Positions 4,894 through 33,153 of a stretch of DNA of 64,000 bases are shown piece after piece (position 1 is the stretch's first letter; each line of letters opens with the position of its first letter). The position numbers and the translations under genes were made by a program. The DNA is from Kiritimatiellota bacterium (GTDB taxonomy: Bacteria > Verrucomicrobiota > Kiritimatiellia > JAAZAB01). Under the pieces are notes generated by a model, which was not told the origin of the DNA, made no database searches, and saw only the letters and a program-made list of their open reading frames with translations. The stretch is from positions 21,306 to 85,305 of the forward strand of contig JAPLSY010000030.1 of NCBI GenBank assembly GCA_026398415.1, read 5' to 3'.

Positions 4894-5505
4894 TCATTTC
4901 GCAATTTTCAGCAGCACACGCCGGCTTTTCGTCGATGCCACTTGCTTGCCCAACGCAACCGCCTGCTTGCGTATCCCCGGCTTGTGCTTGATGTCACCCG
5001 ATACGCCGGCATTGGAAACAAGGAGCGAAGCAAATTTCATGCCGGTATATTTGGCGGTCAAGGCAAACGGCTTGCTGAGGGCATCCAACCCCTCATCTTC
5101 AAAGGCGCTGGCTAGCAGAACGAGCGTCTTGCCTTTTAACGGGGTCGCCACGGTGCCGGCCTGATTGTCCCATTTGTAGAGCGAGAACATCCGGTCAAAG
5201 ACGAGCTTAAGCTGCGCGCTTGCTCCATAGAAATACAGGGGCGTGGCCATGACAATCACATCCACCTTGGCCATCCTGGCCAGGACCGGCTTGGCCTCGT
5301 CCTTAATCACGCAGGCGTACGCATCCAGTTTTTGGCAGGTCCGGCAGGCTGTGCATCCGGTGGATTTATACTTTAAGAAAGCCGTGCGCACGATCTCAAC
5401 CCGCGCGCCTTTTGAGCGCGCACCCGCGGCGAACCAATCCACGAGTGTCGCCGTGTTGCCGGCTTTCCTGGGACTTCCTGATAGTATTAAAATTTCTTTA
5501 GTCAT
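4894..5505 (-). CDS. Flavodoxin family / iron-sulfur flavoprotein (NADPH-dependent FMN reductase fold)
   Basis: GSPRKAGNT, CTACRTC...C, ATPLYF motifs. Confidence 0.85.
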   Translation of the reverse strand: MTKEILILSGSPRKAGNTATLVDWFAAGARSKGARVEIVRTAFLKYKSTGCTACRTCQKLDAYACVIKDEAKPVLARMAKVDVIVMATPLYFYGASAQLKLVFDRMFSLYKWDNQAGTVATPLKGKTLVLLASAFEDEGLDALSKPFALTAKYTGMKFASLLVSNAGVSGDIKHKPGIRKQAVALGKQVASTKSRRVLLKIAK

Positions 5506-5998
5506 AGGTTCCTAATTTTGATTTTGTCATCCTTTCAATCGAAACGAGAACGTCCTTATAAATCCGCTCCAGTTGATCCGCCAGCTCGGGCGCAAGTTCT
5601 TCGCCAAATTCGCCCGACCAGGCCACCTCGATGCCGATCAGGCTAACGCGCTCCGGCATGGGTATATGCATCGTACGCGCCAGGGCCAGCGCCTCCGGCA
5701 GGTTAATACTGTGCGCGGAAGCCCCTACCCGATACCGCTCCAAGTCGGTTTCAGTCAGCACCTTGACCGTGCCGGCCGGCACCGTTCCCGTCACCATGGC
5801 ATCCACGATCAGGACTTGCTGAAAGCCTTGCGTCTCGGATATGAAATCCAACGGCGATCCGGTGAACTCACGCACGACCACACGGGCGTCTGACTTGAAG
5901 AATTGTTCCAGGCGTCGCCCAAGCGCATATCCAATGCAGTCGTTTTTAACGATCGGATTGCCAAGATAACAGATCAGCGTCCTGCGACTTTTTTGCAT
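5498..5998 (-). CDS. Hydrogenase maturation protease
   Basis: LGNPIVKNDCIG, IVDAM, SAH motifs; directly downstream of large subunit. Confidence 0.9.
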   Translation of the reverse strand: MQKSRRTLICYLGNPIVKNDCIGYALGRRLEQFFKSDARVVVREFTGSPLDFISETQGFQQVLIVDAMVTGTVPAGTVKVLTETDLERYRVGASAHSINLPEALALARTMHIPMPERVSLIGIEVAWSGEFGEELAPELADQLERIYKDVLVSIERMTKSKLGTYD

Positions 5999-6055
5999 AT
6001 TTATATCCGGCGCCTGTCCTCCGGCTTGCCCCGCCAGCCTTCATGCGATATGGAT

Positions 6056-7558
6056 TTAGCTGCGGGTGATGTGGCGGATTTCGGCGCCGGTGTTGTCGCG
6101 AAGCACGATCTGCATGGGCATCTGCCCAATGGCCGCATGCGTGGCGCAGGAAAAGCAGGGGTCGTAGGCGCGGAACGCCATTTCCACCATGTTGAAAATG
6201 CCGTCGCTGACCATGCCGTTCTTGATCAGGGTCTTGGCCACGTTGCGCACATCCATATTCATGGCGCCATAATTCTGGGCGCTGGCCACCAACAGGTTAA
6301 GATCGGTCATCATGCCGTTGGCATCGGTCTTGTAGTGATGGAACAGCGTCCCGCGCGGCGCCTCCACGACCCCCACGCCTTCGCCCACCACTTGCTTGCT
6401 GATGGTGCGGTAGTTCCGGCTGAGGATTTCGTCATCCGCGGCCAGTTCCTGCAAGCGCTCGGCGGCGTACAGGGCTTCCACGGCACGCGCCAGGTGGTAG
6501 GTCAGCGAATGCTGCACGGGCTTAGGTCCGAACCGCTTCATAAAATGTTTGTAAGCCTGCTGGGCTTTTGGGGTCGCCATGCCGTTACAGACATTGAGCC
6601 GCGCGAGCGGCGCCACCCGATACATGCCGCTCGCTTTGCCATCCACCAATCCTTTCCAGCCCACCTGCCGCAAATACGGAAACTTTAAATAAGACCACGG
6701 CACCGGATGCTCGGCGATATAGGCAAGATAATCCTTACCCTCAAAATCCGCCACGTATTTTCCATCCGGATCCATGATTTTCAGGCGTCCGCCGTAAAAC
6801 GTGAAACGGCCGTCGGCATCCACCATGCCCATGTGATAGGAACGATGGTAATAGAGGTCTTTATTCAGGATAATCGCGACATATTCCGGATTGGCCATAA
6901 CGATCTTGTCGGCGGCCGCGATGGTAAACTCGCAGAAGTCCACCAGCTTGCCGGCCAATTCCTGGATGCGTTTGCGCTCCTCCCTGGTGACGGGATGCGA
7001 CACGCCGCCGGGCAGGCTGAACACCGGGTGCGTGGATTTTCCGCCGATGATGTCTTCGATTTCCACGGCATAGCTGCGATGTTTGATCACCTTGGTCCCG
7101 ATATCCAAACCCAACTCGGCAATGACCCCGAACACATTGCGCTTAAGCTGATCGGCTGCCGGGCCGACCACAAAATCCGGCGCCATGCCCAGCGCGTAAA
7201 TATGCTCCAGGTGACTTTCCAGCATGTGGGCGCAGTAGCCCAACTCCCGGATTTTATGCGCCGCCCGGGGCGGAGGCGCGGCAAACACCTGGTCCAGGGC
7301 CAGCGTGGAGGCCAGGTGATGCGGCCACGGGCATACCCCGCACAGCCGCGTAACGATGCGCGGAATTTCCTCGGCAGGCCGGCCTTTGCAAAACTCCTCG
7401 AACCCGCGCAGTTCCACCACCTGGAAATAGGTGTCTTCCACGTTGCCGTCGGCGTCCAGGAAAATGTCGATCTTGGCGTGACCCTCGAGGCGCGTGACCG
7501 GCTCGATGTGGATCGTCCGCGCCGTAGTTTTTTTCTTCTCATCCCAGATTTTCGGCAT
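6056..7558 (-). CDS. mvhA: [NiFe] hydrogenase large subunit, Mvh type (group 3c)
   Basis: EPVTRLEGH, L1 RLCGVC, GVVEAPRG, L2 RAYDPCFSCATH plus cleavable C-terminal tail; start trimmed to MPKIWD. Confidence 0.93.
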   Translation of the reverse strand: MPKIWDEKKKTTARTIHIEPVTRLEGHAKIDIFLDADGNVEDTYFQVVELRGFEEFCKGRPAEEIPRIVTRLCGVCPWPHHLASTLALDQVFAAPPPRAAHKIRELGYCAHMLESHLEHIYALGMAPDFVVGPAADQLKRNVFGVIAELGLDIGTKVIKHRSYAVEIEDIIGGKSTHPVFSLPGGVSHPVTREERKRIQELAGKLVDFCEFTIAAADKIVMANPEYVAIILNKDLYYHRSYHMGMVDADGRFTFYGGRLKIMDPDGKYVADFEGKDYLAYIAEHPVPWSYLKFPYLRQVGWKGLVDGKASGMYRVAPLARLNVCNGMATPKAQQAYKHFMKRFGPKPVQHSLTYHLARAVEALYAAERLQELAADDEILSRNYRTISKQVVGEGVGVVEAPRGTLFHHYKTDANGMMTDLNLLVASAQNYGAMNMDVRNVAKTLIKNGMVSDGIFNMVEMAFRAYDPCFSCATHAAIGQMPMQIVLRDNTGAEIRHITRS

Positions 7559-8576
7559 AACCTCTGGCCCCCTTTGGATTATCTTCCACCACACGACCGA
7601 GTTCGGACTTCGGCAGGGAATACCGGTAAAAGAATCCCAGCGGATCGAGAATCTGGCTCATCAGTTTTTCGATCTGCTCTTCGCTCATCTCGGCTTCATG
7701 GTCGGTCAGCCCGTATAGCGACGAAATGGCCGAAAGCATGGAGCCGCCCTGCTCGGTCACTGCTCCCGTTGGCCCCATGCAACCGCGGCAAGGCATGTTG
7801 ACCTTGGTACAGACGGCGTCGCATCCGGCGCGGGTCGCCGGACCAAGGCACAGCACCCCCTGCTCCAGAAAACATTTATCCGGATCGAAATCCAGTTCAT
7901 GCACCCTTGTAAAGCTGCCCACCGTGAGCTTTTCCGCCTTTTTCCGTTTGCACTCGTCACAGAGCGTCATTTCGGAGGCAATGACGGTGCCCTTGGGCGG
8001 CAGGGGCTTACCCTTTTCCACAAAATCCTTGACCATCTGCAGGATCTGCATGTTCATGACATGGGTCGGCGGGCAGGCCGGCACGAAATAATCCACGTCT
8101 ACCACGTCGTCCAAAGCTTTAACATCCTCGAAGAATTCAGGCAGGGTCAGTTTGTGCCCGGCAGCGTCCTGAAAATTTTCCTGCGGCTCGGCGCCGTCGG
8201 TGTTGACCGTGGAAACCGTATTTTTATAAACCTGATCGAAGATCTTGCGCTTGGTTGTAACGTTGGCCAGTCCGGGAATGCCCCCCATATGGGCGCAGGC
8301 CCCATAGGCGATCAGTATTTTGCACTTGGAGCGCATAATCCTGGCCAGTTCGGCGTTATCGGAATTGCGCACGGCCCCGTGATAGAAACCGATGGTAATG
8401 GACTGGTCCGGCATGGCGCGCAACTGGTCATACTTGACGTCCAGCAGGGTCGGCGCAAACACAATATCGGCCAGCGCCATGAGCGTCAGCAGGTCCTCGT
8501 TGAAATTGACCACGGCAATGTCGCAACCAACGCACGAAGCGCCGCGTTTCAGGGCAATCGTAATTTTTTCCGGCAT
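7539..8576 (-). CDS. mvhG: [NiFe] hydrogenase small subunit, Mvh type
   Basis: SCVGC, GACAHMGGIPG, PACPP, LCDEC, CFLEQGVLCLGPAT...C...CRGC. Confidence 0.92.
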   Translation of the reverse strand: MPEKITIALKRGASCVGCDIAVVNFNEDLLTLMALADIVFAPTLLDVKYDQLRAMPDQSITIGFYHGAVRNSDNAELARIMRSKCKILIAYGACAHMGGIPGLANVTTKRKIFDQVYKNTVSTVNTDGAEPQENFQDAAGHKLTLPEFFEDVKALDDVVDVDYFVPACPPTHVMNMQILQMVKDFVEKGKPLPPKGTVIASEMTLCDECKRKKAEKLTVGSFTRVHELDFDPDKCFLEQGVLCLGPATRAGCDAVCTKVNMPCRGCMGPTGAVTEQGGSMLSAISSLYGLTDHEAEMSEEQIEKLMSQILDPLGFFYRYSLPKSELGRVVEDNPKGARGYAENLG

Positions 8577-8588
8577 GGCTTAGTACCA

Positions 8589-8623
8589 GTTATTAGTGAT
8601 CAGTGATCAGTAATTAGTGATTT
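8589..8623 (+). repeat. In-phase heptamer array, GTGATCA family (5 units)
   Basis: GTTATTA GTGATCA GTGATCA GTAATTA GTGATTT. Confidence 0.8.
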
Positions 8624-9109
8624 ATCATCATCCACCGTCTGTTGCCCGGCTTCCAATTTCCGGCGTCCGGTTTCTGGTGTCCGTTGCCTGTCGTCCGTCT
8701 TCCGATACGGACTGGGGCCGAGTTGCTCGACTTGATTGATAAAAGCATTAATCACCCGCGCAAACTTTTCGCCTTCCGAGGCTGAGACCCACTCCAGTTT
8801 CAGGCGGCCCTCGTGCAAGCCGAACTGTTTCAGCAGGAGTTTAAGGAGCGCCATGCGCCGGCGGGTGCGGTAATTCCCGCCGATGTAATGGCAATCCCCC
8901 GGATGACAGCCGGCCACCATGACGCCATCCGCGCCCCGGCGAAATGCGCGCAGGATAAATTCGGGGTCAATCCGCGCCGAACACATGCTGCGGATCACAC
9001 GGAATTCCGGCCGGATTTTCATGCGGCTGATACCCGCAAGGTCCGCCCCGGCATAGGAACACCAGTTGCAACAAAACACCAGCACTTTTGGTTTGAATTC
9101 AGCCGCCAT
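8600..9109 (-). CDS. mvhD: Hydrogenase iron-sulfur subunit MvhD
   Basis: FCCNWCSYAGAD, MCSARIDP, GCHPGDCHY; start trimmed to MAAEFKPK; tail encoded by heptamer repeats. Confidence 0.93.
   Translation of the reverse strand: MAAEFKPKVLVFCCNWCSYAGADLAGISRMKIRPEFRVIRSMCSARIDPEFILRAFRRGADGVMVAGCHPGDCHYIGGNYRTRRRMALLKLLLKQFGLHEGRLKLEWVSASEGEKFARVINAFINQVEQLGPSPYRKTDDRQRTPETGRRKLEAGQQTVDDDKSLITDH
8635..8704 (+). repeat. In-phase heptamer array, TCGTCCG family (10 degenerate units)
   Basis: CCGTCTG TTGCCCG GCTTCCA ATTTCCG GCGTCCG GTTTCTG GTGTCCG TTGCCTG TCGTCCG TCTTCCG. Confidence 0.7.
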
Positions 9110-9122
9110 AGCCCACAATACC

Positions 9123-9164
9123 ATTTCTGATTTATGATTTCGGATTGCTGATTGCTGATTTCTC
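9123..9164 (+). repeat. In-phase heptamer array, ATT(T/G)CTG family (6 units)
   Basis: ATTTCTG ATTTATG ATTTCGG ATTGCTG ATTGCTG ATTTCTC, between hdrA and mvhD. Confidence 0.8.
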
Positions 9165-9170
9165 GCCGCT

Positions 9171-12100
9171 TTACGCTCCACTTTCTTCCAGCGCCGCATC
9201 GATCATCGCCATAATCTGGCTGGTCTTATAGCCTTTCTGCTCCATGGCGCCGCTCGGGCAGGTCGCCGCACAACAGCCGCATCCTTTGCACAAGGCCTCG
9301 GTAACCTTGACCCGCTTTTTCTTCTGCCCGTTGCGCTCGACTTCGACGATCTCCAGGGCGCCATAATCGCAGACCGGCACGCACAGGCCGCAACCATCGC
9401 ACAAATCTTCGTTCACGGCCACAATGATCGGCTCGGATTCATATTCTTTCCGTGAAATAATCGTGCCGACCCGCGCCGCCGCCGCCTGGGCCTGGGCAAT
9501 GGTTTCCTCGATCGCCTTGGGCGCGTGGGCCATGCCGGCCATGAAGACGCCCTCGGTGGCGAAATCCACCGGGCGCAGTTTGACGTGCGCCTCGAGCAGG
9601 AACTTCTCGGCATTCAACGGCACCTTGAACAATTTTCCCAGTTCGGCGTTATCGGGGTTGGCATCCACCCGCGCGCTTAAGACCAGCAAATCCGCGCCGA
9701 TATTCAGAACCGACCCGGTCAATTCATCCGGAACGGTCACATTGATTTTCCGGCCGGCGGCGGCCAGCGCCGGTTTATGTTCAACCTCGAACCGCACAAA
9801 TTGCACGCCGAGATCGCGCGCCCGGGTGTAATATTCCTCACGCAAGCCATAGGTGCGGATATCGCGATAGAGGATATAGACCTGGCAGCGCGGATTCAAC
9901 TGCTTGAGGCGGATGGCATTTTTGATGGCGGTGCTGCAGCAAACCCGGCTGCAATACATATGGTCGCTCTCGCGCGACCCGACGCACTGGATCATGACCA
10001 CGTTATCGGGAACCTTGAACGCCGAGCTGCGCATTTGTTTTTCCAGGTCCAACTGCGTAAGGACCCGTTCTGATTTTCCATAGCCGTACTCAATCGGCTT
10101 GCTTTCCTGCGCGCCCGTGGCCAGCACAACGGCCCCGTGTTTCAAGGTTTTCTTGGTGTTTTTTCCGATCTGCAGCACGGTTTCGAAATTGCCGACAAAT
10201 CCGGCGGCCTGTTTTACGGACGCGTTCAGGAACAAGGCAATGCGCGGATGGTGCCGCACGCGCGCCGCAAGCGACGCGGCCAAATCCGCCGGCGCCCGGC
10301 CGTCGAGGGTACGATCCAGCTTTAACAGATTGCCCCCCAGTATTTTTTCCTTTTCAACCAGGAAAACGTCAAAGCCCTGGTCGGCGATGTCCAGGGCCGC
10401 CGTCATGCCGGCCAGCCCGCCGCCGATCACGAGCGCTTTCGCGGTCACCGGTTGCGGCTGGGAATGCAAAGCCTCCGCCAAGTTCACCTTGGCCACCGCC
10501 ATGCGCACGAGGTCGCAGGCTTTCGCGGTGGCGGCGGCGGGATGGTCCATATGGATCCAGGAACACTGGTCGCGGATATTGGCCATTTCGAAGAGGTAAG
10601 GATTGAGCCCGATTTCCTTCAAGGTCGCCTGGAACAGCGGCTCGTGCGTGCGCGGCGAGCAGGAGGCCACCACCAGCCGGTTCAGCTTGTGCTCCCCAAT
10701 TAACTGGCTGATGTGATTTTGAGACTCCTGCGAACAGGCATAGAGGCTGGTCTCGGTATATACCACGTTCGGCAGGGACTTGGCATATTCCGCCACGCGC
10801 GCAACGTCCACCACGCCGGCAATATTGATTCCGCAGTGGCAGATAAGCACGCCCACCCGCGGCGTCTCCTGCTCCACGGCGCGCTCCGGCGGAAATTGTT
10901 TAATCCTGGTCTGGGTGCCGCGCGCGCGAGCGAGTTCCCGGCCGGCCTCGCTGGCGGCTGCGCTGGCCTGCACCACGGTTTCCGGAATATCCCGGGGACC
11001 GGACGCCACGCCAGCGACAAAAACGCCGGGCCGGGAAGTGCGCAAAGGCGCCAGGGAATCGGTCCAGACAAATCCGAAATCGTTCAAGTTCACACCCAGC
11101 CGCCCCGCCAGGCCCCGCAGGCTGGCGGAGGGTTCCAGACCGGTCGCCAGGACCACCATGTCGAACGCAGCTTCGGCCGTACCGCCGCCGGCCGGCGCAT
11201 ATTTGACCATTAACTGCTTTGTCTGCTGATCCTGCTCCACGCCATGAACCCGCGCGCGTTCGAAAACCACGCGGCTTTCGCTGCGCGCATGCTCGTAATA
11301 CTTGTCGAAATCCTTGCCGTGCGCGCGCACATCCATGAAGAAAATCGTGGCATCCACCTGCTTGAGATGCTCCCTGGCGATCACGGCTTCCTTGATGGCA
11401 TACATGCAGCAGACGGACGAGCAATAGCCGTTGCGGCAGGCCACGTCCCGTGACCCCACGCATTGCAGGAAAGCAATCCGCTTGGGCTCGCGGCCGTCGG
11501 AAGGACAGCGCACATGCCCGGCAAACGGACCGGATGCGCATAAAATGCGCTCGAATTCCATGCTGGTCACAACATCCGGGAACCGGCTGTAGCCGTATTC
11601 GTGTTTGGGATACGGCTGGAACTGATCGTAACCCGGGGCCAGAATAACGGCGCCGATCTCGATTTGCTCGATGCGATCCTTGTCGTCATAACAAATGGCG
11701 CCGGCCTGGCAGGCCTTCTGGCACAAGCCGCAGGTCCCCTTGGTCAGCTTCAGGCACATGGCCGCGTCAATGGCCGGCGCATTGGGCAGGGCCTGGGCGT
11801 AAGGGCGCGCAATGGCGCTCTTTGCGCGCAATTGCCACTCGAATGCAGAGAGCGTTTTCTTGGGCACTTCCTCGTCGGGATGGGCAGGATGCCGGACATA
11901 GCGCCGGGGACATTTTTCCAGGCAGACCCCGCAGCCCGTGCAGCGCTCGAGATCGATATAGCGGGCGCGTCGCCGGATGGTGGCCGTGAACCGACCGCTC
12001 TCCCCCTGCAAGTCCAGCACGTCGGCCATGGTCATCAGGGTCACATTGAGATGACGTCCGCACTCGACCAGCTTCGGCGATAGAATACAGAGCGAGCAGT

Positions 12101-12281
12101 CGTTGGTGGGAAACGTCTTGTCCAGCATGGCCATGTTGCCGCCAATGGCCGGACTGGATTCGACCAGATAGACCTTGAACCCGGCGTTGGCCAGGTCCAG
12201 TGAGGCTTGAATCCCGCCTACGCCGCCGCCCACCACCAGGACCGCGCCCACGGGCTTCGATTTTTTTTGCGGTGCAATCAT
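9171..12281 (-). CDS. hdrA: Large heterodisulfide reductase subunit A-like flavoprotein (two FAD modules, multiple 4Fe-4S)
   Basis: GGGVGGIQA and GGGLAGMTA FAD motifs, KTFPTNDC, two QCVGSR...CSxVCC motifs, ferredoxin CxxCxxCxxxCP motifs. Confidence 0.92.
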   Translation of the reverse strand: MIAPQKKSKPVGAVLVVGGGVGGIQASLDLANAGFKVYLVESSPAIGGNMAMLDKTFPTNDCSLCILSPKLVECGRHLNVTLMTMADVLDLQGESGRFTATIRRRARYIDLERCTGCGVCLEKCPRRYVRHPAHPDEEVPKKTLSAFEWQLRAKSAIARPYAQALPNAPAIDAAMCLKLTKGTCGLCQKACQAGAICYDDKDRIEQIEIGAVILAPGYDQFQPYPKHEYGYSRFPDVVTSMEFERILCASGPFAGHVRCPSDGREPKRIAFLQCVGSRDVACRNGYCSSVCCMYAIKEAVIAREHLKQVDATIFFMDVRAHGKDFDKYYEHARSESRVVFERARVHGVEQDQQTKQLMVKYAPAGGGTAEAAFDMVVLATGLEPSASLRGLAGRLGVNLNDFGFVWTDSLAPLRTSRPGVFVAGVASGPRDIPETVVQASAAASEAGRELARARGTQTRIKQFPPERAVEQETPRVGVLICHCGINIAGVVDVARVAEYAKSLPNVVYTETSLYACSQESQNHISQLIGEHKLNRLVVASCSPRTHEPLFQATLKEIGLNPYLFEMANIRDQCSWIHMDHPAAATAKACDLVRMAVAKVNLAEALHSQPQPVTAKALVIGGGLAGMTAALDIADQGFDVFLVEKEKILGGNLLKLDRTLDGRAPADLAASLAARVRHHPRIALFLNASVKQAAGFVGNFETVLQIGKNTKKTLKHGAVVLATGAQESKPIEYGYGKSERVLTQLDLEKQMRSSAFKVPDNVVMIQCVGSRESDHMYCSRVCCSTAIKNAIRLKQLNPRCQVYILYRDIRTYGLREEYYTRARDLGVQFVRFEVEHKPALAAAGRKINVTVPDELTGSVLNIGADLLVLSARVDANPDNAELGKLFKVPLNAEKFLLEAHVKLRPVDFATEGVFMAGMAHAPKAIEETIAQAQAAAARVGTIISRKEYESEPIIVAVNEDLCDGCGLCVPVCDYGALEIVEVERNGQKKKRVKVTEALCKGCGCCAATCPSGAMEQKGYKTSQIMAMIDAALEESGA

Positions 12282-12301
12282 AAGAAAATCGTTTTAAGAA
12301 C

Positions 12302-12350
12302 GTTCTTGGTTCTTCGTTTTTCGTTCTTCGTTAATCCGGAACGAAGAATC
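12302..12350 (+). repeat. Heptamer array GTTCTTC family (5 units) with short inverted arm
   Basis: GTTCTTG GTTCTTC GTTTTTC GTTCTTC GTTAATC followed by GAACGAAGAA; fills the hdrC-hdrA gap. Confidence 0.75.
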
Positions 12351-12359
12351 GGAAACTCT

Positions 12360-12821
12360 TTAATTCGCATTCACTTCCTCAAAGCGCTTCTTTTGGGCCG
12401 CATAGGCCGCTTTATCAGTCACCAGTTTGTTGATCAGGTTTTGTTGTATTTTAACCGCGAGCGAATTCACTTCCTTTACGTCCTTAAGCCGGTCGGCATC
12501 CACATGGCCTTCCTTGACGGCCATGGCGCGCAAAGCCTGAATGATGTCCCGGAACTTGACATTCTGAGGGCAGGTGGCATAGCAGGCGTAACACTGGATA
12601 CAGCGCCAGATCAAGGGCGATTTCAACACCTGCTGGCGCATGCCCAAAAGCACCTGGCGAATGATTTTGCGCGGATTGAATTCCTCGTCAATCCCCGCCA
12701 CCGGACAGGCCGCCGTGCATGTGCCGCAGGCATAACACAGCTTGATATTCTCGCCGCCGGGATAGGCCGCGACATCAAACTTGAACTTCGGGTCCAGATC
12801 CTTACATAAGATCGTTTCCAT
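12360..12821 (-). CDS. hdrC: Heterodisulfide reductase subunit C-like 2x[4Fe-4S] protein
   Basis: CYACGTCTAACP, FNPRKIIR, IWRCIQCYACYATCPQNV; start trimmed to METILC after AAGAGG. Confidence 0.85.
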   Translation of the reverse strand: METILCKDLDPKFKFDVAAYPGGENIKLCYACGTCTAACPVAGIDEEFNPRKIIRQVLLGMRQQVLKSPLIWRCIQCYACYATCPQNVKFRDIIQALRAMAVKEGHVDADRLKDVKEVNSLAVKIQQNLINKLVTDKAAYAAQKKRFEEVNAN

Positions 12822-12877
12822 AATTACCTCTTTCTTCAACGCATGCCCTGCTCCGCTTTCAGCGGGCCCGTCCTCTG

Positions 12878-13837
12878 TCATACCAACGGAACCGGCCTGG
12901 GCGTCAGCCCGGCCTTTTGCACGATCTCCGCCACCTTGCTTTCCCACTCAATTGCCATGAGGTGAATACCGGCCACGCCCTCGATCTGGCGCAAGGCCTG
13001 AATCTGTTCGGCACAAATAGCGATGCCCTCCGTCTTGGGCTCCTTGGATCGTTCCATCCGCTCGATATAGCTATCGGGCAATTTGATCCCGGCGACATTG
13101 TCGCGCATGTGTTTGGCCATGCCCAGGGTTCTGAGCGGGGTCAGTCCGGCCAGGATCTTGCAGCGCTTGTGCAGACCGCGGGCGCGCACAAGCTCCATCC
13201 AGCGCTGAAACCGATCCATGTCGTAAATGCATTGGGTCTGGATGAAATCCGCGCCGGCTTCCACTTTTTTCTCGAGGCGCGTGACCCGGAACTCGAACGG
13301 ATCGGCGAACGGGTTGGCGGCGGCGCCGATAAACATGCGCGGCTCATGGAGCGCGGCCTTGGCACTGGCTTTAATCTCATCCCCGCAGGCAAATATTTTT
13401 TTATCCCGCATATCCCGCACCATCCGGATCAACTGAATGGAGTCCAGGTCGAATACGTGCCGGGCCGTCGGGTGGTTGCCAAAACACTGGTGATCGCCGG
13501 TCAGGCATACCAGGTTGCGGATGCCCAGCAGGTAGGCGCCCAGAATATCGGCCTGCATGGCCAGCCGGTTGCGGTCGCGACAGGTCATCTGCATGATCGG
13601 CTCCAGCCCCAGATCCAACGCCAATTTGGAAGCGCACAGGCTGGATACCCGGACAATGGCCGTCTGGTTATCCGTGATATTGACGGCATCCACCCAGCCC
13701 CGCAGGTGATCGGCCTTGGTCTTGATGATTTCCGGGTCGGCGCTCTTAGGCGGTCCCAGCTCGGCGGTGACGATAAATTCCCCCGCCGCCATCAGTTTTT
13801 CCAGATTGCTTCCGGATTTATAGGTTGTTTCGGACAT
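12878..13837 (-). CDS. metF: Methylenetetrahydrofolate reductase, FAD subunit
   Basis: VTAELGPPK, NITDNQ, QMTCRDRNRLAMQ, LTGDH, GADFIQTQ. Confidence 0.93.
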   Translation of the reverse strand: MSETTYKSGSNLEKLMAAGEFIVTAELGPPKSADPEIIKTKADHLRGWVDAVNITDNQTAIVRVSSLCASKLALDLGLEPIMQMTCRDRNRLAMQADILGAYLLGIRNLVCLTGDHQCFGNHPTARHVFDLDSIQLIRMVRDMRDKKIFACGDEIKASAKAALHEPRMFIGAAANPFADPFEFRVTRLEKKVEAGADFIQTQCIYDMDRFQRWMELVRARGLHKRCKILAGLTPLRTLGMAKHMRDNVAGIKLPDSYIERMERSKEPKTEGIAICAEQIQALRQIEGVAGIHLMAIEWESKVAEIVQKAGLTPRPVPLV

Positions 13838-13857
13838 AATGCGTTCTTGGTTATTTA

Positions 13858-14520
13858 TCAACTATCCTGCGCAACATCTTCCCGCGTCAGCCGGCGCGGC
13901 CCGCCACAGTGGGTCTTTGACCAATCCCGCGGCGCCGCCACGGCCGTCAACGCATCCAGCTTGCCGAGGGCTTTCAGCCGGTCATGAATCAATTGCCAGC
14001 CGCACTCGATATTATCGGGGTCCACCTCGCACCTGCCGTCTTCGGACCCGCCGCAAGGGCCGTTGGAAAGCGACTTGGCGCAGCGGGTCACCGGGCAAAC
14101 CCCGCCGAACACGCCGAGCTGACAATCGCCACAGGCCAGGCAGTTTTCCGCCCATTTGCCGGCGGCTTCGTTCGTGCCCATGAATTTTGTATTCAGCGCC
14201 GGATACACCGGCTTGTCGCCGAAAAGCCGCGCCGCCAGCTGGACCCCCACCCCACAGGCCAGCGAAAGAATGGCGTCACAGGCGGTCGCCACTTCGCGCA
14301 CGGACTCGAAAAACTCGGCATCGCACTGGCGCTCGATGGTCTGCTCCACCGCCTCAAGCTTTCCGCCCAGGCGCAAGACCGACGTCAGGGTGGCCACTTC
14401 ACGTTCGCCGCCGGCCAGGCAGACCGTGACACAAGTTCCACAGCCCAGCACCAGCACCTTCCGGTGGCCCTGGAGCAATCCCATGATTTCATCCATTGGT
14501 TTTTGTTCGGCAATAATCAT
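13858..14520 (-). CDS. metV: Methylenetetrahydrofolate reductase small Fe-S/Zn subunit
   Basis: GCGTCVTVC, ERQCD, ACGVG, CLACGDC, CPVTRCAKSLSNGPCGGS..GRCE, CGW. Confidence 0.92.
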   Translation of the reverse strand: MIIAEQKPMDEIMGLLQGHRKVLVLGCGTCVTVCLAGGEREVATLTSVLRLGGKLEAVEQTIERQCDAEFFESVREVATACDAILSLACGVGVQLAARLFGDKPVYPALNTKFMGTNEAAGKWAENCLACGDCQLGVFGGVCPVTRCAKSLSNGPCGGSEDGRCEVDPDNIECGWQLIHDRLKALGKLDALTAVAAPRDWSKTHCGGPRRLTREDVAQDS

Positions 14521-14526
14521 GACGCA

Positions 14527-16581
14527 TCATTCCTTCACAAACTGCAGGAACCGGCCGGATTCGAACTCGGTCAGGTGGCCTATTCTTAGCCGCGCCCCGT
14601 CAATACCGGCCTTGGTCAACATCGCGCGCAAACGCGCCACCCGCTTGGCGCCATGATCGGCGCCAACCAGATAGCGGCAATTTTCACGATGGCATCCCAG
14701 GAGCGTAACGTTTTTGGCGCCCCGTTCGAGCGCCTGCAGAACCTGACGGGCATCTACTTTTCCCAGGCAGGGCACACGAATCAAACGCACCGCGGAACTG
14801 TATTCCGCCCGGTTGACACCGGCCAGCGTGGCGGCCGGCCAGGCGGAATGCTCGCAGGCGAACACCGTCATATCCGGTTCCACGCCGATATCAGCCCGCA
14901 TCTGCTCGTCGGTAAAACGCGGCATCTGGATCGCAACCGCCGGACACATTGTGGTGCATAATCCACAGCGCCGGCAGGCCGGCGCCGAAACGGCCGCGGT
15001 TTTGTTGGCCGCATCCACACGGATGGCGCCATGCGGACACGTGCGCAGGCACGTCAGGCACAAAACGCACCGATCGGGGTCTACCGTGGCCGCATCCTGG
15101 GGCATGGTCACGCGCCCGGAGGCGAGCAAGGCCTGAATCGCGGCAGCGGTCGCGGCGGCATCGTTCAGCGCCTCGCGGAACTCGCTGTTGCCGCGCGCCA
15201 AGCCAACCACAAACAGACCCGGTCGATTGGCAAGCACCGGGGTCAGCCAGACATTATCCGCCTGCGCCGCGCCGCCGGGCCCGCGCCGGATCAGATTTCC
15301 CGGCGCAGACAATCCATCGCCGGGACACAAGCGCGCATCCGCCATGATCGCGCATTCCACGGATTCCGTCACAACGGCCCCCGACTGAATATCCTGGTAT
15401 TCAATGTCAACTTGATTCCCGGCAGCATTGATTTTCGGCTTGGTTTTATACCGCATGATCAGGACACCGGCTTCCCGCGCCCGGCGATATAGCGCTTCCA
15501 AGCCCCAGGCCGCAACGCGGATATGCCGCGCAAAGAGCAGGACTCGGCACCGCCGGCTGCGGGCCAACCGTTCGGCGGCGGTCAGCGCCAGGGCATTGAT
15601 GATCCGTCCCTGCTCCGCGGCAAGGTCGAGAAAAATCGCCACCGATTTCGGGAAGGATTGGGCGTGCAACCGCTCAGCCAATCCGGCCAAATTCATCACC
15701 GCGCTCTTACCAGTCAGATGCTCCGGGAATGGGAACGACTCGAGTTCGCCGCAGGCCAGCGCCACCGCGCCCGCCGTTATATTCCGCGCTTGCTCCCCGG
15801 TCGTGAATGCGGCAACAAAGCGGCCGACATCCCCGCTCAACGATCGCAAGGCGGCGTTGCCGATAAAGGTAATGGCCGGATCATGGCGAACCGCTTCCAT
15901 CGTGGCGGCCATGACCTGCCGCACCGCTTGCGCGGTTTCGGCGTCCCGGTTCTCCGACTTGTCGGACGAGTCCGAGAGGCCGGTGTCATCCAGGTAACCG
16001 AAGAAATCGATCATCCGGGCGGCGCTCCCGCCCAAGTCCGGTCTGCGGCTGGCCAGCGTAACCTTGTGTCCCATGCGCGCCAGGCACAGTGCCGTTTGCA
16101 TCGCCACCAGGTCGCCGCCCAGGATAAGAACGTCGCGATTCATGGGTTCGCGTTTGGAGGCAATCGGCTCCAACAGGACGGCGCGTTCCACGGCCGCGTT
16201 AATTAACGCATTCGCCTTACGGGTGGCCGCGGCAGGATCGGCGTGTACCCAGGCGCACTGCTCGCGGATATTGAGGAACGTTGCGAGGCCATCGCCGATA
16301 CGAACACGCTTAAGCGCCGGATTCAACGCCGGGTCGAAAATTTCGCGCTCACAGGCCGCCAGCACAAGGCGACGGCAGCCCTTGGCGGCAACGGCCTTGA
16401 CCGCCTGAAGGCATCCCTTGGCATTGCACAAGCGCGATGTCACCTGCACGGCGGCCACGCCTTCCCGCGCGGCAGCAGCCTTGGCCAGCGCCTGAAAATC
16501 CAGGCGCTTGGCGAGGGTCCCGGCACAATCGCACAGGATCACGCCGACACCGTTTTTGTCTTTTTTAACAGATGGGCTCAT
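14527..16581 (-). CDS. HdrA-like (degenerate FAD module) / ferredoxin / MvhD fusion protein (QmoB-like architecture)
   Basis: N-terminal LCDC...LC...AC...NIREQCAWVH; CVLCLTCLRTCP and CRRCGLCTTMCP; C-terminal MvhD-like FACEHS, PCLGK, GCHRENCRY. Confidence 0.85.
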   Translation of the reverse strand: MSPSVKKDKNGVGVILCDCAGTLAKRLDFQALAKAAAAREGVAAVQVTSRLCNAKGCLQAVKAVAAKGCRRLVLAACEREIFDPALNPALKRVRIGDGLATFLNIREQCAWVHADPAAATRKANALINAAVERAVLLEPIASKREPMNRDVLILGGDLVAMQTALCLARMGHKVTLASRRPDLGGSAARMIDFFGYLDDTGLSDSSDKSENRDAETAQAVRQVMAATMEAVRHDPAITFIGNAALRSLSGDVGRFVAAFTTGEQARNITAGAVALACGELESFPFPEHLTGKSAVMNLAGLAERLHAQSFPKSVAIFLDLAAEQGRIINALALTAAERLARSRRCRVLLFARHIRVAAWGLEALYRRAREAGVLIMRYKTKPKINAAGNQVDIEYQDIQSGAVVTESVECAIMADARLCPGDGLSAPGNLIRRGPGGAAQADNVWLTPVLANRPGLFVVGLARGNSEFREALNDAAATAAAIQALLASGRVTMPQDAATVDPDRCVLCLTCLRTCPHGAIRVDAANKTAAVSAPACRRCGLCTTMCPAVAIQMPRFTDEQMRADIGVEPDMTVFACEHSAWPAATLAGVNRAEYSSAVRLIRVPCLGKVDARQVLQALERGAKNVTLLGCHRENCRYLVGADHGAKRVARLRAMLTKAGIDGARLRIGHLTEFESGRFLQFVKE

Positions 16582-16587
16582 GAAAAA

Positions 16588-17862
16588 TTATGCCTGTTTC
16601 AAAATCTCGGCGCACACGGCTTCCGCCTGGCCGATGGTTGCGGCGATGTCCTGCGGGTTGCCGCAGGTTCCGGCGACAAATATGTTTCGGCAATGCGTCT
16701 GCGGCAAGCCCGCCGTACCCTTGATCCCCAGAAAACCCTCTTGATCCACGGCCAGCCGCAGGCAATCAGCCAGCGCGCGCGCCGCCGGCGCGGGGCGGAT
16801 GCCGATGGAAAGAATGACCAGGTCAAACTCCGCCTTATTGACGGCGCCTTTCTCCTGATCTTCATATGCAATGACAACCGCACCCTCCGAACCGGCAACA
16901 ATCTCCACCGGCCGCGCGCGCACAAAGGTCATCGTTTTCTGGCAGGCTGCAAAAAAAGATTCGAAGTCTTTGCCGAAATTCTGGATGTCCATGTAAAAGA
17001 CCGTGACGCTCGTATCCGGTGCGTCATGCTGAATGCGCCGAGCCATGCGCAGGGCGTAAGCGCAGCAGACCGTCGAACAATAGTTGGTGTCTTCCGGCCG
17101 GCGATGGGCGTGTTCGCTGCGCGACCCGACGCACTGGATAAACGCCACGCGGCGGGGCGCGCTTCCGTCGGACAAGCGCGTGATGCGGTGCTGGCCGGCC
17201 AATTGATGCTCGGCATCCAACCCGGAGATGACATTGGGAATCACGCCGTAACCGAAAGTTCCCATCGGCCCGGGATGGAAGGGCTCATGGCCCGTAGCCA
17301 CCACAACGGCATCCACGTCCAGTTCCCGGTTTTGGGTCGGCTCTTTCCAATCGATCGCCTGGACCGGGCAGGCCTTGGCACACCGATCACAGGCCTTGTC
17401 ACGGGTGCGGCGGCAAAGCGGCAAATCCAGCACCGGCACGCCGCCATGCAAGGCCGGGTATTTGACGGAAATGCAATGCTCAGGACAAACAGCCACGCAA
17501 AGACCGCAGCCGATGCATCGCTCGCGGCGGATAATGTTCGGTTCCGTTCGCAGGGTAACACGATAGGCGGCGCCATTATTTCCCGGCACCAGCGCCACCA
17601 GTTTGGAACGGGTATTGAGCCGCACACGCGGAGCGTGGAGCGCGGCCTTGAGCCGATCGGTGGCCACGCAAACGTGACACCGCAAACAGACATCGGCGGC
17701 TTTACAGCCCATGGCCGCCGCCTGGCCGCCAATTACCGGCTCCTTTTCAACCCACTGCACGTCGAGACCAGCGCGTCCCAGGCGTTCCGCCACCGTCGCA
17801 CCGGCAATGCCTCCGCCGAGAACCAGCACGCACCGAATGGGTTTGTTGGATTTCGTTGTCAT
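16588..17862 (-). CDS. Short HdrA-like FAD/Fe-S protein (QmoA-like architecture)
   Basis: GGGIAG, VEKE..IGG, CIGCGLCVAVCP, QCVGSR...YCSTVCC. Confidence 0.85.
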   Translation of the reverse strand: MTTKSNKPIRCVLVLGGGIAGATVAERLGRAGLDVQWVEKEPVIGGQAAAMGCKAADVCLRCHVCVATDRLKAALHAPRVRLNTRSKLVALVPGNNGAAYRVTLRTEPNIIRRERCIGCGLCVAVCPEHCISVKYPALHGGVPVLDLPLCRRTRDKACDRCAKACPVQAIDWKEPTQNRELDVDAVVVATGHEPFHPGPMGTFGYGVIPNVISGLDAEHQLAGQHRITRLSDGSAPRRVAFIQCVGSRSEHAHRRPEDTNYCSTVCCAYALRMARRIQHDAPDTSVTVFYMDIQNFGKDFESFFAACQKTMTFVRARPVEIVAGSEGAVVIAYEDQEKGAVNKAEFDLVILSIGIRPAPAARALADCLRLAVDQEGFLGIKGTAGLPQTHCRNIFVAGTCGNPQDIAATIGQAEAVCAEILKQA

Positions 17863-18149: not shown

Positions 18150-19391
18150 TTAATGCTCATGATTCAACAGATAACGGAATTTGCCGGGGGTAAGGTTGAC
18201 GGCATCCTTGAAGGTACGGGTAAAGTGGCTTTGATCCGTGAAGCCGCAGCACAGGGCAATGTCGCTGACTTTCATAGTCGTGGTGGATAGCAGGCGCCGG
18301 GCTTCCGCGATGCGCTTTTCGTGAAGCAACTGGTGAAAAGTCTTGCCGGTTTCCCGGCGCAACGTATGCGCCAGGGAGGAAACACTGGCGCCCGTGGCGC
18401 GCGCGGCGGAGGCCAGGATTGCTTTGCCGGAGTAATGACACTGGATCCAGTTCAACGCCCGATCAGGAAGCGAGCCCTCCTTCTCGGAGTACTCTTCAGC
18501 GACCAGATGCTGCTGAATCATGTCCGCCACTTCACAGCAAGCGGCTTCGATGGTGTCGGCCTTTTCAAGGCGATGCATGGAACGCAGCTCACGGTTGACG
18601 GCGGTCTCCCACGGCATACCGCGGAGCACATCCTGGCTGGTTATCACGGCCAGCAGTATGCGCAAATGCGCTTTGAGCTTGGTCAGATCCCAGTTGCTGG
18701 CCATGAGCAGTTTGGCGAGAAAAATCGAGACTAACTGACGCGTGCGCTCCCGGTCCTGCCGGTTCAAATGCAAAACCATCCGGCATGTATCCACCATGAG
18801 ATCCGACGGCGGCTGGGCAGCGTTGCGCAAAACTTCCGCTTCCTCGGCAATTTCGCGCTGTTGCAGGTAACGGGCATTCTGCCGGGCAAAGAACGCAGAA
18901 GAATTCAAGCCCGACGAGAAGGTGGCATCCATGACATACTGGCCCAGGCCGCGCAGGGCGCTCGGCGTGATCGGCTTCAGCGAATCCAACGTCTTGCGCA
19001 GCGCCGGCACATCCCGCCGGGGCAACATGTTCAGACGTTCGCCAACTGTTTCGCGGATATCCGATTCCGGGGAATAGAATCCGCCCAGCGAAATTCCACC
19101 ACGCCCGATATTGCGCGGCGCCACCGCCACGGTGACAAAGAGCAATCCCGCCCAGCATTCCGAGTAAAACGGCTCGCCGGACGATAACGCGTTCAATGCC
19201 GCGTTACAGCAGGTATGGCGGCAAAATGAACGGGCGGACGGATGCTCCAGACATTGCCGGCAAAAGTCACAGAGCGCCCCATTGCGCAATGGACCTTGCT
19301 CGCTCAGATCATGATAGACCGCACCCTGCCGGCTCACCGATCCGATTTCGTTCAGTAACGACCCGATGCGCTTTGAAAAATCTTCATTCAT
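18150..19391 (-). CDS. AraC-family regulator with PocR sensor domain
   Basis: FC...C...GEP...CWAGL PocR pattern; C-terminal KVSDIALCCGFTDQSHFTRTFK...TPGKFR. Confidence 0.9.
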   Translation of the reverse strand: MNEDFSKRIGSLLNEIGSVSRQGAVYHDLSEQGPLRNGALCDFCRQCLEHPSARSFCRHTCCNAALNALSSGEPFYSECWAGLLFVTVAVAPRNIGRGGISLGGFYSPESDIRETVGERLNMLPRRDVPALRKTLDSLKPITPSALRGLGQYVMDATFSSGLNSSAFFARQNARYLQQREIAEEAEVLRNAAQPPSDLMVDTCRMVLHLNRQDRERTRQLVSIFLAKLLMASNWDLTKLKAHLRILLAVITSQDVLRGMPWETAVNRELRSMHRLEKADTIEAACCEVADMIQQHLVAEEYSEKEGSLPDRALNWIQCHYSGKAILASAARATGASVSSLAHTLRRETGKTFHQLLHEKRIAEARRLLSTTTMKVSDIALCCGFTDQSHFTRTFKDAVNLTPGKFRYLLNHEH

Positions 19392-19457
19392 CTGCGCAAG
19401 AATGTACCATATAATTGCAGGAATATACAAGATTGATCGCCGATAATCTGGCACATT
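19360..19457 (-). promoter_or_regulatory. Divergent promoter region between araC and metF-like gene
   Basis: 21-bp-spaced direct repeat (minus strand ATTCCTGC at 19424-19417, ATTCTTGC at 19403-19396); duplicated at 17897-18003. Confidence 0.7.
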
Positions 19458-33050: not shown

Positions 33051-33153
33051 AATTCAGCCTTTCCATTGTATGGTTCCAACTCTCTTCACAACGACGCCGA
33101 TTAATATACGCCAACCGCCCGACCCGACAAGCAAAATTGGCGCACCACGACGG

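Follow-up and report, generated by a model that had tools for sequence, protein, structure and literature searches.

A recurring HdrB-less operon that may link a MetVF-type methylene-THF reductase to H2 in a Kiritimatiellota bacterium

Which partners exchange electrons with Hdr-linked methylene-THF reductases has long been a question in anaerobic bioenergetics, and for the Moorella/Sporomusa enzyme this question includes the second acceptor and what HdrB does (PMC8760232, PMC9430772). The locus described here, found in a 64,000-nucleotide stretch (the window) of the genome of an uncultured anaerobic bacterium of the Kiritimatiellia, raises this question again, being a natural version that lacks HdrB and an NAD(P)H site and carries its own hydrogenase, which narrows the problem to H2, ferredoxin and methylene-THF; a sister version with an NADH module within the same genus serves as a built-in comparison. 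On balance, the gene content suggests that the operon probably encodes a soluble, flavin-based bifurcating or confurcating, HdrB-less methylene-THF reductase linked to H2 and run, in this host, toward methyl-THF oxidation. Beyond the gene content, we infer a single complex, its coupling to ferredoxin, its stoichiometry and direction, and the Fe-S subunit in contact with MetV.

Gene content of the operon

The operon occupies positions 4894-17862 of the minus strand and comprises eleven closely packed genes, all with verified ORFs and separated by gaps of at most 78 nt or overlapping, as the earlier note had described. Domains were assigned with Pfam and NCBIfam models. HdrA1 (16588..17862, 424 aa; NCBIfam HdrA2, E 4e-80) is followed by an HdrA2-MvhD fusion (14527..16581, 684 aa), whose C-terminal MvhD part matches FlpD (E 3e-30), and then by the two subunits of a MetVF-type methylene-THF reductase. 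MetV, the Fe-S/zinc subunit (13858..14520, 220 aa with 15 Cys), matches Pfam DUF5981 (MTHFR C-terminal, PF12225; E 1e-34) and keeps 68-93% identity across related clusters. MetF, the catalytic flavoprotein (12878..13861, 327 aa; Pfam MTHFR, PF02219, E 2e-42), shares 4 nt with the end of metV, has more than 8000 homologues, with 72-93% identity in MAGs of the PVC group, and falls into the MetF clade of HdrB-less clusters.

Immediately after metF, as in every cluster of this type seen, lies the gene for an HdrC-like electron-wire subunit with two [4Fe-4S] clusters (12360..12821; TIGR03290, E 1e-26). Its longest ORF extends to 12947, the true start being probably the ATG at 12821, giving about 153 aa and matching the homologues; residues 25-108 align with residues 29-110 of 5ODC chain C, and two CxxCxxCxxxCP motifs are present. 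A tandem HdrA follows (9171..12281, 1036 aa; 5ODC_A, E 1e-189), and then MvhD, the [2Fe-2S] protein that connects the hydrogenase to HdrA (8600..9199; FlpD, E 2e-53), with an intact Cys set and a likely start at 9109-9124.

The earlier note had claimed a complete group 3c hydrogenase with its protease, and the domain models bear this out, as VhuA, VhuG and VhuD are the top models for MvhA, MvhG and MvhD. The small subunit MvhG (7539..8576; VhuG, E 1e-55; Pfam Oxidored_q6) has 13 Cys, enough for three Fe-S clusters, and the group-3c-type large subunit MvhA (6056..7594; VhuA, E 1e-111) carries both CxxC metal-site motifs (RLCGVCPWPH at 83-92 and DPCFSCATH at 478-486), as well as the C-terminal tail for proteolytic maturation. 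The maturation endopeptidase (5498..5998; TIGR00072, E 3e-24; Pfam HycI) is kept after mvhA in related loci, and HypD is encoded on contig C16 of the same genome. The last gene encodes an iron-sulfur-flavoprotein-like FMN reductase (4894..5505, 203 aa; Pfam FMN_red, E 1e-21; CxxCxxCx7C) and shares 8 nt with the protease gene; in L085 and other related loci it does not follow the protease, and it is therefore probably accessory.

A PocR-AraC protein encoded 288 nt upstream in the same direction (18150..19454, minus strand; Pfam HTH_18/AraC and PocR) is a candidate regulator of the operon, and a paralogue with 25% identity (34070-35395, plus strand) adjoins corrinoid methyltransferase genes. Scans of the operon for promoters gave site counts not above those of shuffled sequence, and terminator-like sites between the genes were not above chance.

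HdrA modules and the absence of HdrB

Three HdrA-like genes hold four HdrA-type modules, accompanied by one fused and one free MvhD domain. [quoted passage not shown] HdrA2-MvhD, likely its heterodimer partner, combines the HdrA N-terminal cluster domain with an FAD-like domain that has neither the ferredoxin insert nor Cys197, and adds a C-terminal ferredoxin domain and the fused MvhD [2Fe-2S] domain; residues 10-198 correspond to HdrA 12-201, 346-565 to HdrA 430-649 and 568-684 to MvhD chains. Its Rossmann motif reads GGDLVA, being degenerate in this genome only, with GGGMAG or GGGMAA in relatives, and no acidic residue follows beta-2 in the HdrA2-MvhD orthologues. The earlier note had offered no explanation for this HdrA1 and HdrA2-MvhD pair.

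The tandem HdrA is a fused asymmetric HdrA heterodimer. Its N-terminal half lacks the N-terminal domain and contains the FAD domain, the ferredoxin insert and Cys197 (NDCSLC), while the C-terminal half has the N-terminal domain and lacks Cys197 (LDRTLDGRAP); the alignment with 5ODC_A runs in three stretches (14-397 with 146-510, 472-644 with 2-174 and 852-1031 with 475-650). The two FAD modules that had been ascribed to this protein are present as two Rossmann motifs, both with an intact GGGxxG, and neither domain search nor alignment found a GltD/NfnB-like or NuoF-like NAD(P)H domain in any HdrA of the window, although NAD(P)H-type inserts or modules do occur in relatives. As proposed by Chadwick et al. 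2022 (PMC9012536), the halves of asymmetric HdrA heterodimers complement each other in the N-terminal domain and Cys197, and both pairs found here, HdrA1 with HdrA2-MvhD and the two tandem halves, follow this rule. Four HdrA modules are more than one bifurcation requires.

The placement of metVF within an Hdr/Mvh operon lacking hdrB, also pointed out earlier, holds for the whole genome (93% complete), where HdrB was absent by the Pfam CCG domain (PF02754), by TIGR03288 and by tblastn with Pfam-verified HdrB seeds; the CCG/HdrB domain was likewise found in none of the family's 14 other MetV-positive genomes. Some relatives with HdrB have the gene order metF-hdrC-hdrB, and in the HdrB-less type hdrC is followed by the tandem HdrA, so that by position the input module is an equally good replacement of HdrB as the proposed MetVF. 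In addition, MetV of the Sporomusa type IV enzyme pulled down HdrA and not HdrB (PMC9430772), suggesting that MetVF may dock on HdrA/MvhD and not at the HdrB position.

Recurrence, module exchange and known systems

The earlier note had proposed searching other genomes for an HdrB-less metVF-hdrC-hdrA-mvhDGA operon. Across Kiritimatiellia, Planctomycetota and Spirochaetota, more than 15 independent contigs share the order MetV-MetF-HdrC-HdrA-MvhD-MvhG-MvhA (identical in L001, L022, L043, L085/86, L092, L096, L100, L107, L123, L129, L130, L132 and L137), and the cluster in general has a wide distribution among uncultured Planctomycetota, Kiritimatiellia, Spirochaetota, Latescibacterota and KSB3. 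In genomes of the same genus, HdrA1, HdrA2-MvhD, MetV and MetF are kept at 76-93% identity, and the position of the H2 module is taken by HdrA-N/NuoE, NuoF and a different HdrA/MvhD (56% identity), with no MvhGA. This exchange after the same MetVF-HdrC core argues for H2 as the mid-potential redox partner here, and the hydrogenase and the NADH dehydrogenase look like interchangeable plug-ins. On the MetF tree, the Mvh-linked form requires at least six gains or losses. Moreover, the hydrogenase-attached MvhDs form one cross-phylum clade with 100% SH-like support (FastTree), all followed by MvhG-MvhA wherever the contig continues, and the HdrC tree tracks the host lineage and not the downstream module, which suggests a fixed core plus a plug-in module. 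No Rosetta-stone fusions among HdrC, MetV, MetF, MvhD or Mvh subunits were found at the threshold used.

In the proposed mechanism, a vertically inherited core formed by the HdrA1/HdrA2-MvhD heterodimer, MetV, MetF and HdrC would couple the methylene-/methyl-THF pair (about -200 mV) with ferredoxin, and a laterally exchangeable input/output module of tandem HdrA, MvhD, MvhG, MvhA and protease would link this core to H2/H+, filling the place of the NuoE/NuoF-type NADH module of the sister genomes. The reaction given in the earlier note, with a single H2 for methylene-THF and oxidized ferredoxin, is unbalanced, two H2 being needed by analogy with Mvh-Hdr; following MvhADG-HdrABC, the net reaction would be 2 H2 + Fd(ox) + CH2-THF <-> Fd(red) + CH3-THF + 2 H+. 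In the host, methyl-THF and reduced ferredoxin would be confurcated to H2 at low H2 pressure, thereby channelling methyl groups released by demethylation towards formate and ATP.

The closest described enzyme is the type IV methylene-THF reductase MetFV-HdrCBA-MvhD of Moorella thermoacetica and Sporomusa ovata (PMC8760232, PMC9430772), which likewise has a MetF without NADH site together with MetV, an MvhD gene immediately preceding metV, an HdrC and a tandem HdrA in the form of a fused heterodimer, and for which flavin-based bifurcation is also proposed; MetF is about 60% identical to that of type IV clusters such as the one from Desulfovirgula (L035). Unlike type IV, the present system has no HdrB/CCG protein genome-wide, an extra HdrA1/HdrA2-MvhD pair, a tandem HdrA without NAD(P)H-binding insert, a whole MvhDGA hydrogenase with protease inside the operon, and a host from a lineage of non-acetogenic polysaccharide degraders. 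With the methanogen MvhAGD-HdrABC complex (5ODC, 8RVU) it has in common the group-3c-type MvhA/G/D, an HdrC with two [4Fe-4S] motifs and HdrA domains strongly similar to 5ODC_A. However, the heterodisulfide site is lacking here, as HdrB is missing; in place of the homodimeric four-domain HdrA there are two asymmetric heterodimers, one of them split and the other fused, and MetVF is present as a candidate high-potential terminus.

Colman et al. 2022 (PMC9586279) proposed, from genomics only, an H2-dependent MetVF-HdrA-MvhD for type I Acetothermia with MvhAG/HdrBC encoded elsewhere. As in the present genomic reading, a cytoplasmic group 3c hydrogenase would give or take the electrons of a bifurcating MetVF, but HdrBC is present there, MvhAG lies outside the metVF cluster and the metabolism is acetogenesis; here a single operon encodes all parts, HdrB is absent, and so is acetyl-CoA synthase (ACS). 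The complementary N-terminal domain/Cys197 halves resemble the asymmetric tandem or fused HdrA of ANME archaea and Moorella (PMC9012536); unlike in those fusions, the half that lacks the N-terminal domain comes first, a reversed order, and the partners are MetVF and Mvh instead of HdrBC, Fdh or NfnB-like inserts. In the type III RnfC2-MetVF of Acetobacterium woodii (PMC8760232), a MetVF core also recruits a dedicated electron-donor module, though a single NADH-binding RnfC-like subunit, with no HdrA and no bifurcation. A literature search, with subscription journals mostly outside it and absence thus not being proof, retrieved only the Moorella/Sporomusa type, hdrA-mvhD-metVF-hdrCB variants and the Acetothermia proposal, and no HdrB-less metVF-hdrC-hdrA-mvhDGA operon or H2-dependent MetVF complex. 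The HdrB-less operon is apparently a recurring, undescribed variant of the Hdr-linked folate reductases. Whether it should count as a fifth type of methylene-THF reductase, with an HdrB-less modular core of MetVF, HdrC and HdrA heterodimer and swappable H2 (MvhDGA) or NADH (NuoEF-like) modules, running backwards in ACS-free Kiritimatiellia as a methyl-THF:H+ confurcating oxidoreductase, is doubtful, although possible.

One complex or two, and its direction in the host

The C1 gene content of the host bears on the direction. Besides Fhs and FolD, the latter embedded in the operon of relatives, the genome has two clusters of Mbh/Mrp-type H2-evolving hydrogenases. The window also contains a corrinoid methyl-transfer system on mixed strands (32037..36480; Pfam and NCBIfam), which can make methyl-THF and includes a pterin-binding methyl-corrinoid:THF methyltransferase (32037-33050, minus strand), a B12-binding corrinoid protein (33220-33885, minus strand), the PocR-AraC paralogue mentioned above and a URO-D/MtaA-family methyltransferase (35245-36480, plus strand). 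Positions 40936-43310 contain two further URO-D genes, and the genome as a whole has at least 20 URO-D paralogues. A methyltransferase orthologue adjoins the cluster in L013, L023 and L148. The methyl-corrinoid:THF methyltransferase was found in 31 of the family's 33 genomes, with or without MetV, and showed no specific co-occurrence with it, so the link to demethylation is not specific. Its identification as AcsE was rejected, as in ACS-positive relatives a different, 31-35% identical paralogue adjoins ACS and the orthologues of the window gene (at least 44% identical) sit away from it. A main role of the operon in methionine biosynthesis was also discarded, a separate bifunctional homocysteine methyltransferase/MTHFR being encoded on C61 (NF006396, 663 bits).

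Instead of one complex, the operon could encode two co-transcribed enzymes coupled only via soluble ferredoxin or another diffusible carrier, namely an HdrA1/HdrA2-MvhD-MetVF-HdrC reductase using ferredoxin and/or another carrier and a stand-alone tandem-HdrA-MvhDGA hydrogenase, which seems rather unlikely. The HdrA-MvhDGA module does occur without upstream MetVF, beside Fdh-like or NuoF-like genes (L115, L122, L126 and L139), and can thus function in other contexts or alone; many loci have the core without MvhGA, some with neither hydrogenase nor NuoF-like gene in the stretch examined; unrelated small genes split the two units in L087, and MvhD/MvhGA and HdrC have different evolutionary histories. 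Nevertheless, HdrC-HdrA-MvhD-MvhG-MvhA stands right after metF in three phyla, within the same short gaps, and the NADH module swapped in at the same position implies a shared role. In addition, neither half has an obvious full set of three partners, the core lacking a mid-potential donor and the hydrogenase half a high-potential acceptor. An assembly or binning artefact, or a decaying cluster devoid of function, is very unlikely: the genome is a MAG of 88 contigs and the HdrA2-MvhD GxGxxG motif has degenerated, but the ORFs are all intact, their cofactor motifs are complete, HypD and the protease are kept, and the repetition of the arrangement on many independent contigs, one of 1.14 Mb, speaks against both chance juxtaposition and misassembly.

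Regarding direction, the operon could encode an H2-consuming reductase of the Wood-Ljungdahl or another reductive C1 pathway, ACS having been missed through incompleteness or methyl-THF being a reductant sink, which is quite improbable for this host. It would agree with the scheme for type I Acetothermia, with the 93% completeness of the genome and with the presence of ACS in three genomes of the same genus and, in other phyla, in 16 of the 26 genomes that carry this type of cluster, among them all three whose cluster contains MvhGA; in those phyla a reductive, acetogenic direction is at least as likely. Against it, CdhC gave no match in the own genome, ACS is lacking in 13 of 16 MetV-positive relatives, seven of them 90-100% complete, and the ACS-positive congeners G051 and G056 have no MetV; the host moreover possesses ferredoxin-dependent H2-evolving hydrogenases and methyl-donating corrinoid systems. 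The earlier note had placed methylene-THF reduction first and its reversal as an option, and with ACS absent here and in most MetV-positive relatives the forward reading loses and the reverse gains. The absence of ACS, together with the corrinoid methyltransferases, FolD, Fhs and Mbh-type hydrogenases, suggests that the complex most likely oxidises methyl-THF, so that methyl-THF oxidation with H2 evolution is probably its role in this host.

If the HdrB-less complex runs in reverse in ACS-free fermenters, it would account for the disposal of methyl-THF from corrinoid demethylases where a Wood-Ljungdahl pathway is lacking. In the doubtful reading as a fifth type, polysaccharide-degrading fermenters could then burn the methyl groups of O-methylated sugars or other methylated compounds to formate/CO2 and H2, which would be a methylotrophic side-metabolism not known from the phylum. 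As the cluster is widespread in uncultured members of several phyla, its function affects the modelling of H2 and C1 fluxes in sediments and digesters.

Gene content of the operon and its HdrA proteins

Eleven ORFs called on the minus strand of the window (4894-17862) either overlap or lie at most 78 nt apart, and no terminator stood out between them in an intergenic scan. As identified by Pfam and NCBIfam profile searches, they encode, in order, HdrA1 (16588-17862; 424 aa, with a FAD Rossmann fold and 4Fe-4S motifs), the HdrA2-MvhD fusion HdrA2D (14527-16581; 684 aa, FlpD E 3e-30), MetV (DUF5981, E 1e-34), MetF (methylene-THF reductase (MTHFR), E 2e-42), an HdrC-like protein (TIGR03290, E 1e-26), a double HdrA of 1036 aa, MvhD (E 2e-53), MvhG (13 Cys), MvhA (VhuA model, E 1e-111), a hydrogenase maturation protease and an FMN_red flavoprotein with an iron-sulfur-flavoprotein-type CxxCxxCx7C motif. 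The cofactor motifs are intact: MvhA carries RLCGVCPWPH and DPCFSCATH, with a tail of 27 residues behind the latter, and HdrC bears the CxxCxxCxxxCP motif twice. The true start of HdrC is probably the ATG at 12821 rather than 12947, because its homologues measure 153-156 aa. The eleven-gene Hdr/Met/Mvh cluster described in the earlier note is confirmed by these ORFs, profiles and motifs, and its account of the 1036-aa HdrA, which contains a pair of FAD modules but lacks an NAD(P)H domain, is correct according to the structure alignment.

In this alignment to solved Hdr structures, HdrA1 12-418 corresponds to HdrA 146-559, the FAD domain including the inserted ferredoxin domain, with neither the N-terminal domain nor the C-terminal ferredoxin domain. 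HdrA2D has no inserted ferredoxin domain in the same alignment and comprises the N-terminal domain (10-198, aligned to HdrA 12-201), the C-terminal ferredoxin domain (346-565, aligned to 430-649) and the fused MvhD (568-684). Residues 14-397, 472-644 and 852-1031 of the tandem HdrA align to 146-510, 2-174 and 475-650, respectively (E 1e-189), so that this protein fuses the same two kinds of half as HdrA1 and HdrA2D. Fused and tandem HdrAs have been proposed to be asymmetric heterodimers, marked by the complementary occurrence of the N-terminal domain and Cys197 (Chadwick et al., PMC9012536). Cys197 is retained in the halves without that domain (CLRCHVC in HdrA1, NDCSLC in the tandem protein's N-terminal half) and lost in both halves bearing it (HdrA2D and the second tandem half). 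Judged by sequence, both pairs follow the complementarity rule, and the operon thus encodes a split and a fused asymmetric HdrA heterodimer, both provided with an MvhD of their own.

At residues 153-158 of HdrA2D, the dinucleotide-binding motif is degenerate in this genome (GGDLVA), whereas every relative has GGGMAG or GGGMAA. The Gly-to-Asp change is specific to this lineage and may prevent the half from binding flavin; none of the HdrA2D orthologues shows the acidic residue that normally follows beta-2, and FAD binding may be lost here. Where canonical HdrA has DKTFPTxDCSxC, all HdrA1 orthologues carry a conserved GCKAx[DE]xCxxCxxC, whose four cysteines could hold an extra or different Fe-S cluster.

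Divergently from the PocR-AraC regulator gene located upstream of the operon, the plus strand encodes a 302-aa protein and then an MFS transporter (19415-21605). The former has a weak, partial match to the MTHFR family (Pfam E 1e-9; TIGR00677 E 2.5e-7), and a homologue was seen in none of the related loci. The window also holds an Mrr-family restriction endonuclease gene (2289-2852, minus strand) and a DUF772 transposase-domain gene (44601-45236, plus strand).

HdrB, distribution of the cluster and module exchange

In the genome carrying the operon (3.29 Mb, 93% complete), HdrB was absent by three approaches: Pfam CCG gave zero matches, TIGR03288 gave none even with the cut-off relaxed to E <= 1, and tblastn with Pfam-verified HdrB seeds from related loci reached only E = 0.17. 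Among 60 relatives, the family includes 14 further MetV-positive genomes, and all of these likewise lack the CCG domain, which was detected in 12 of 14 reference genomes serving as controls. The independence of the MetVF/Hdr/Mvh system from HdrB is well supported by these genome-wide searches, in agreement with the lack of hdrB in the operon noted earlier.

A MetF-seeded scan of species-representative genomes, followed by tblastn mapping, separated two cluster types. Type A, HdrA1-HdrA2D-(FolD)-MetV-MetF-HdrC-..., has no HdrB and occurs in Planctomycetota, Verrucomicrobiota/Kiritimatiellia, Spirochaetota, Latescibacterota, KSB3 and some Desulfobacterota, while HdrB-containing clusters of the Moorella type make up type B. 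The HdrB-less combination of metVF, hdrC, hdrA and mvhDGA recurs, as the whole order through MvhD-MvhG-MvhA is present in loci L001, L022 and L043, in assembly contigs L085/86 (within a 1.14-Mb contig, with FolD inserted in the cluster) and in ten MvhA-seeded metagenome loci.

Other type A clusters are of an NADH type, where HdrC is followed by a fusion of the HdrA N-terminus with NuoE and a NuoF-like protein. Four congeneric genomes share 86-88% identity with the window in HdrA1, 76-81% in HdrA2D, 89-93% in MetV and 87-91% in MetF; the NuoE/NuoF module then follows, HdrA/MvhD are just 56% identical and MvhGA are missing. The NADH-type module, composed of the HdrA-N-terminus/NuoE fusion, the NuoF-like protein, MvhD and a fusion of a NuoG-like part with HdrA, without MvhGA, was seen behind the same MetVF core in L146, L155, L150 and L145 from same-genus genomes and in L141, L148, L149 and L152. 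This sister cluster, for which no published description was found, resembles the window operon in an NADH-linked version.

In the MetF tree, the window is nested among these Nuo-type congeners, and the Mvh-linked state requires at least six gains or losses, while the HdrC tree tracks host lineage. Free-standing MvhDs form two clades, one of 12 proteins from three phyla, with strong support and MvhGA next in all wherever the contig continues, and a separate one without hydrogenase. These patterns point to a vertically inherited core of MetVF, HdrC and HdrA1/A2D, and to tandem HdrA, MvhD and MvhGA as a swappable module occupying the same slot as the NADH-dehydrogenase module. The apparent Mvh/Nuo swap at one slot is the strongest available evidence for H2 as the redox partner of the MetVF system.

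Relatives also have HdrA forms split by NuoE/NuoF/NuoG-like parts and forms of ~1480-1690 aa with a GltD/NfnB-like insert. The latter, seen in L107, L115 and L117 and in proteins P0133-P0168, precede MvhDGA, following FolD-MetV-MetF-HdrC in L107 and a formate-dehydrogenase-like gene in L115; such systems make up a big modular HdrA-Mvh family of uncultured bacteria and archaea.

Assembly and wiring

Comparative genomics upholds the H2 linkage and HdrB independence proposed in the earlier note, whereas assembly into one complex, coupling to ferredoxin, docking of HdrC on MetV and the direction of reaction are points that we infer. The operon could instead encode two separate enzymes, the MetVF core and an HdrA-MvhDGA hydrogenase. 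HdrA-MvhDGA occurs without MetVF in L115 (behind the formate-dehydrogenase-like gene), L139 (behind NuoF), L122 and L126 and is therefore not exclusive to MetVF, but two enzymes are considered rather unlikely.

For the single complex, the earlier wiring proposal runs from HdrA through HdrC to MetV, with MetVF replacing HdrB. Three observations fit an alternative, where MetVF would sit on MvhD/HdrA and be connected to the input module by HdrC: in both cluster types, an MvhD gene or domain lies immediately upstream of metV or folD-metV; some HdrB-containing clusters read metF-hdrC-hdrB, and type A has the tandem HdrA at the hdrB position; and Sporomusa MetV pulled down HdrA, not HdrB (PMC9430772).

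Physiological direction and significance

Among the genes named earlier for this genome, those for HypD, Fhs and FolD (on contig C53; inside the operon in relatives) are present, while acetyl-CoA synthase (ACS) was not detected. This lack is probably real, because ACS is also missing in 13 of 16 MetV-positive relatives, seven of them 90-100% complete. A distinct bifunctional homocysteine methyltransferase/MTHFR is available for biosynthesis. The MetF proteins most similar to that of the window carry Planctomycetota and Kiritimatiellia names, in keeping with an uncultured Kiritimatiellia host. The genome also has two membrane-bound Mbh/Mrp-type group-4 [NiFe] hydrogenase clusters, in opposite orientation at ~17-41 kb of contig C48, both of which include a dedicated protease besides a NuoD-like large subunit (404-408 aa), a NuoB-like small subunit and antiporter-like subunits.

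At 32037-43310, the window encodes a corrinoid (B12-binding) protein, a pterin-binding methyl-corrinoid:THF methyltransferase and three URO-D/MtaA-family methyltransferases, adjoined by a second PocR-AraC regulator. Together with at least 20 URO-D paralogues in the genome, this system suggests a broad demethylation capacity. These genes lie amid sugar-processing genes (Gfo/Idh/MocA oxidoreductase, Zn-dehydrogenase and glycoside-hydrolase-like protein), and between them and the operon are an RND efflux system (22518-29159) and the thiamine genes thiF (21565-22317) and thiG (30558-31343). In another locus, L089, an alpha-L-fucosidase gene (~15.3-16.8 kb) is enclosed by the NuoF-like gene on one side and additional Fe-S/MvhD genes on the other, with GH3/GH4 glycosidase genes upstream, physically tying that cluster to polysaccharide degradation.

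The most economical reading of the gene content would be methyl-THF oxidation with H2 release: THF would receive methyl groups, the complex would oxidise methyl-THF while co-oxidising reduced ferredoxin and releasing H2, and FolD and Fhs would yield formate and ATP. Ferredoxin potentials lie at ~-450 to -500 mV. For methylene-/methyl-THF and H+/H2, E0' values of -200 and -414 mV, respectively, are quoted (PMC9430772). Calculated from E0' values, the confurcation would be endergonic at 1 bar H2 and exergonic around 1-10 Pa H2, a plausible regime in sediments having H2 scavengers. This reading is weakened by the near-universal presence of the methyltransferase in the family, with or without MetV, and by ACS in most cluster-bearing genomes of other phyla, including all three others with in-cluster MvhGA. 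In those phyla the reductive direction is likely, as H2-driven methylene-THF reduction in the Wood-Ljungdahl pathway; the reaction is expected to run either way.

Acetogen MTHFRs are sorted into types I-IV, where type IV is MetFV-HdrCBA-MvhD, oxidising NADH at HdrA, with an unknown second acceptor (PMC8760232). The window cluster has neither HdrB nor the NADH site in HdrA that define type IV, and has a hydrogenase and an HdrA heterodimer in addition. From type I Acetothermia genomes, a bifurcating MetVF reaction dependent on H2 was proposed (PMC9586279), where HdrBC is present and MvhAG is encoded elsewhere. Neither the operon without HdrB nor the exchange of Mvh and Nuo modules was found described in the literature covered, largely outside subscription journals. 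The operon recasts the unresolved type IV problem as a testable three-substrate hypothesis, of real interest for anaerobic bioenergetics.
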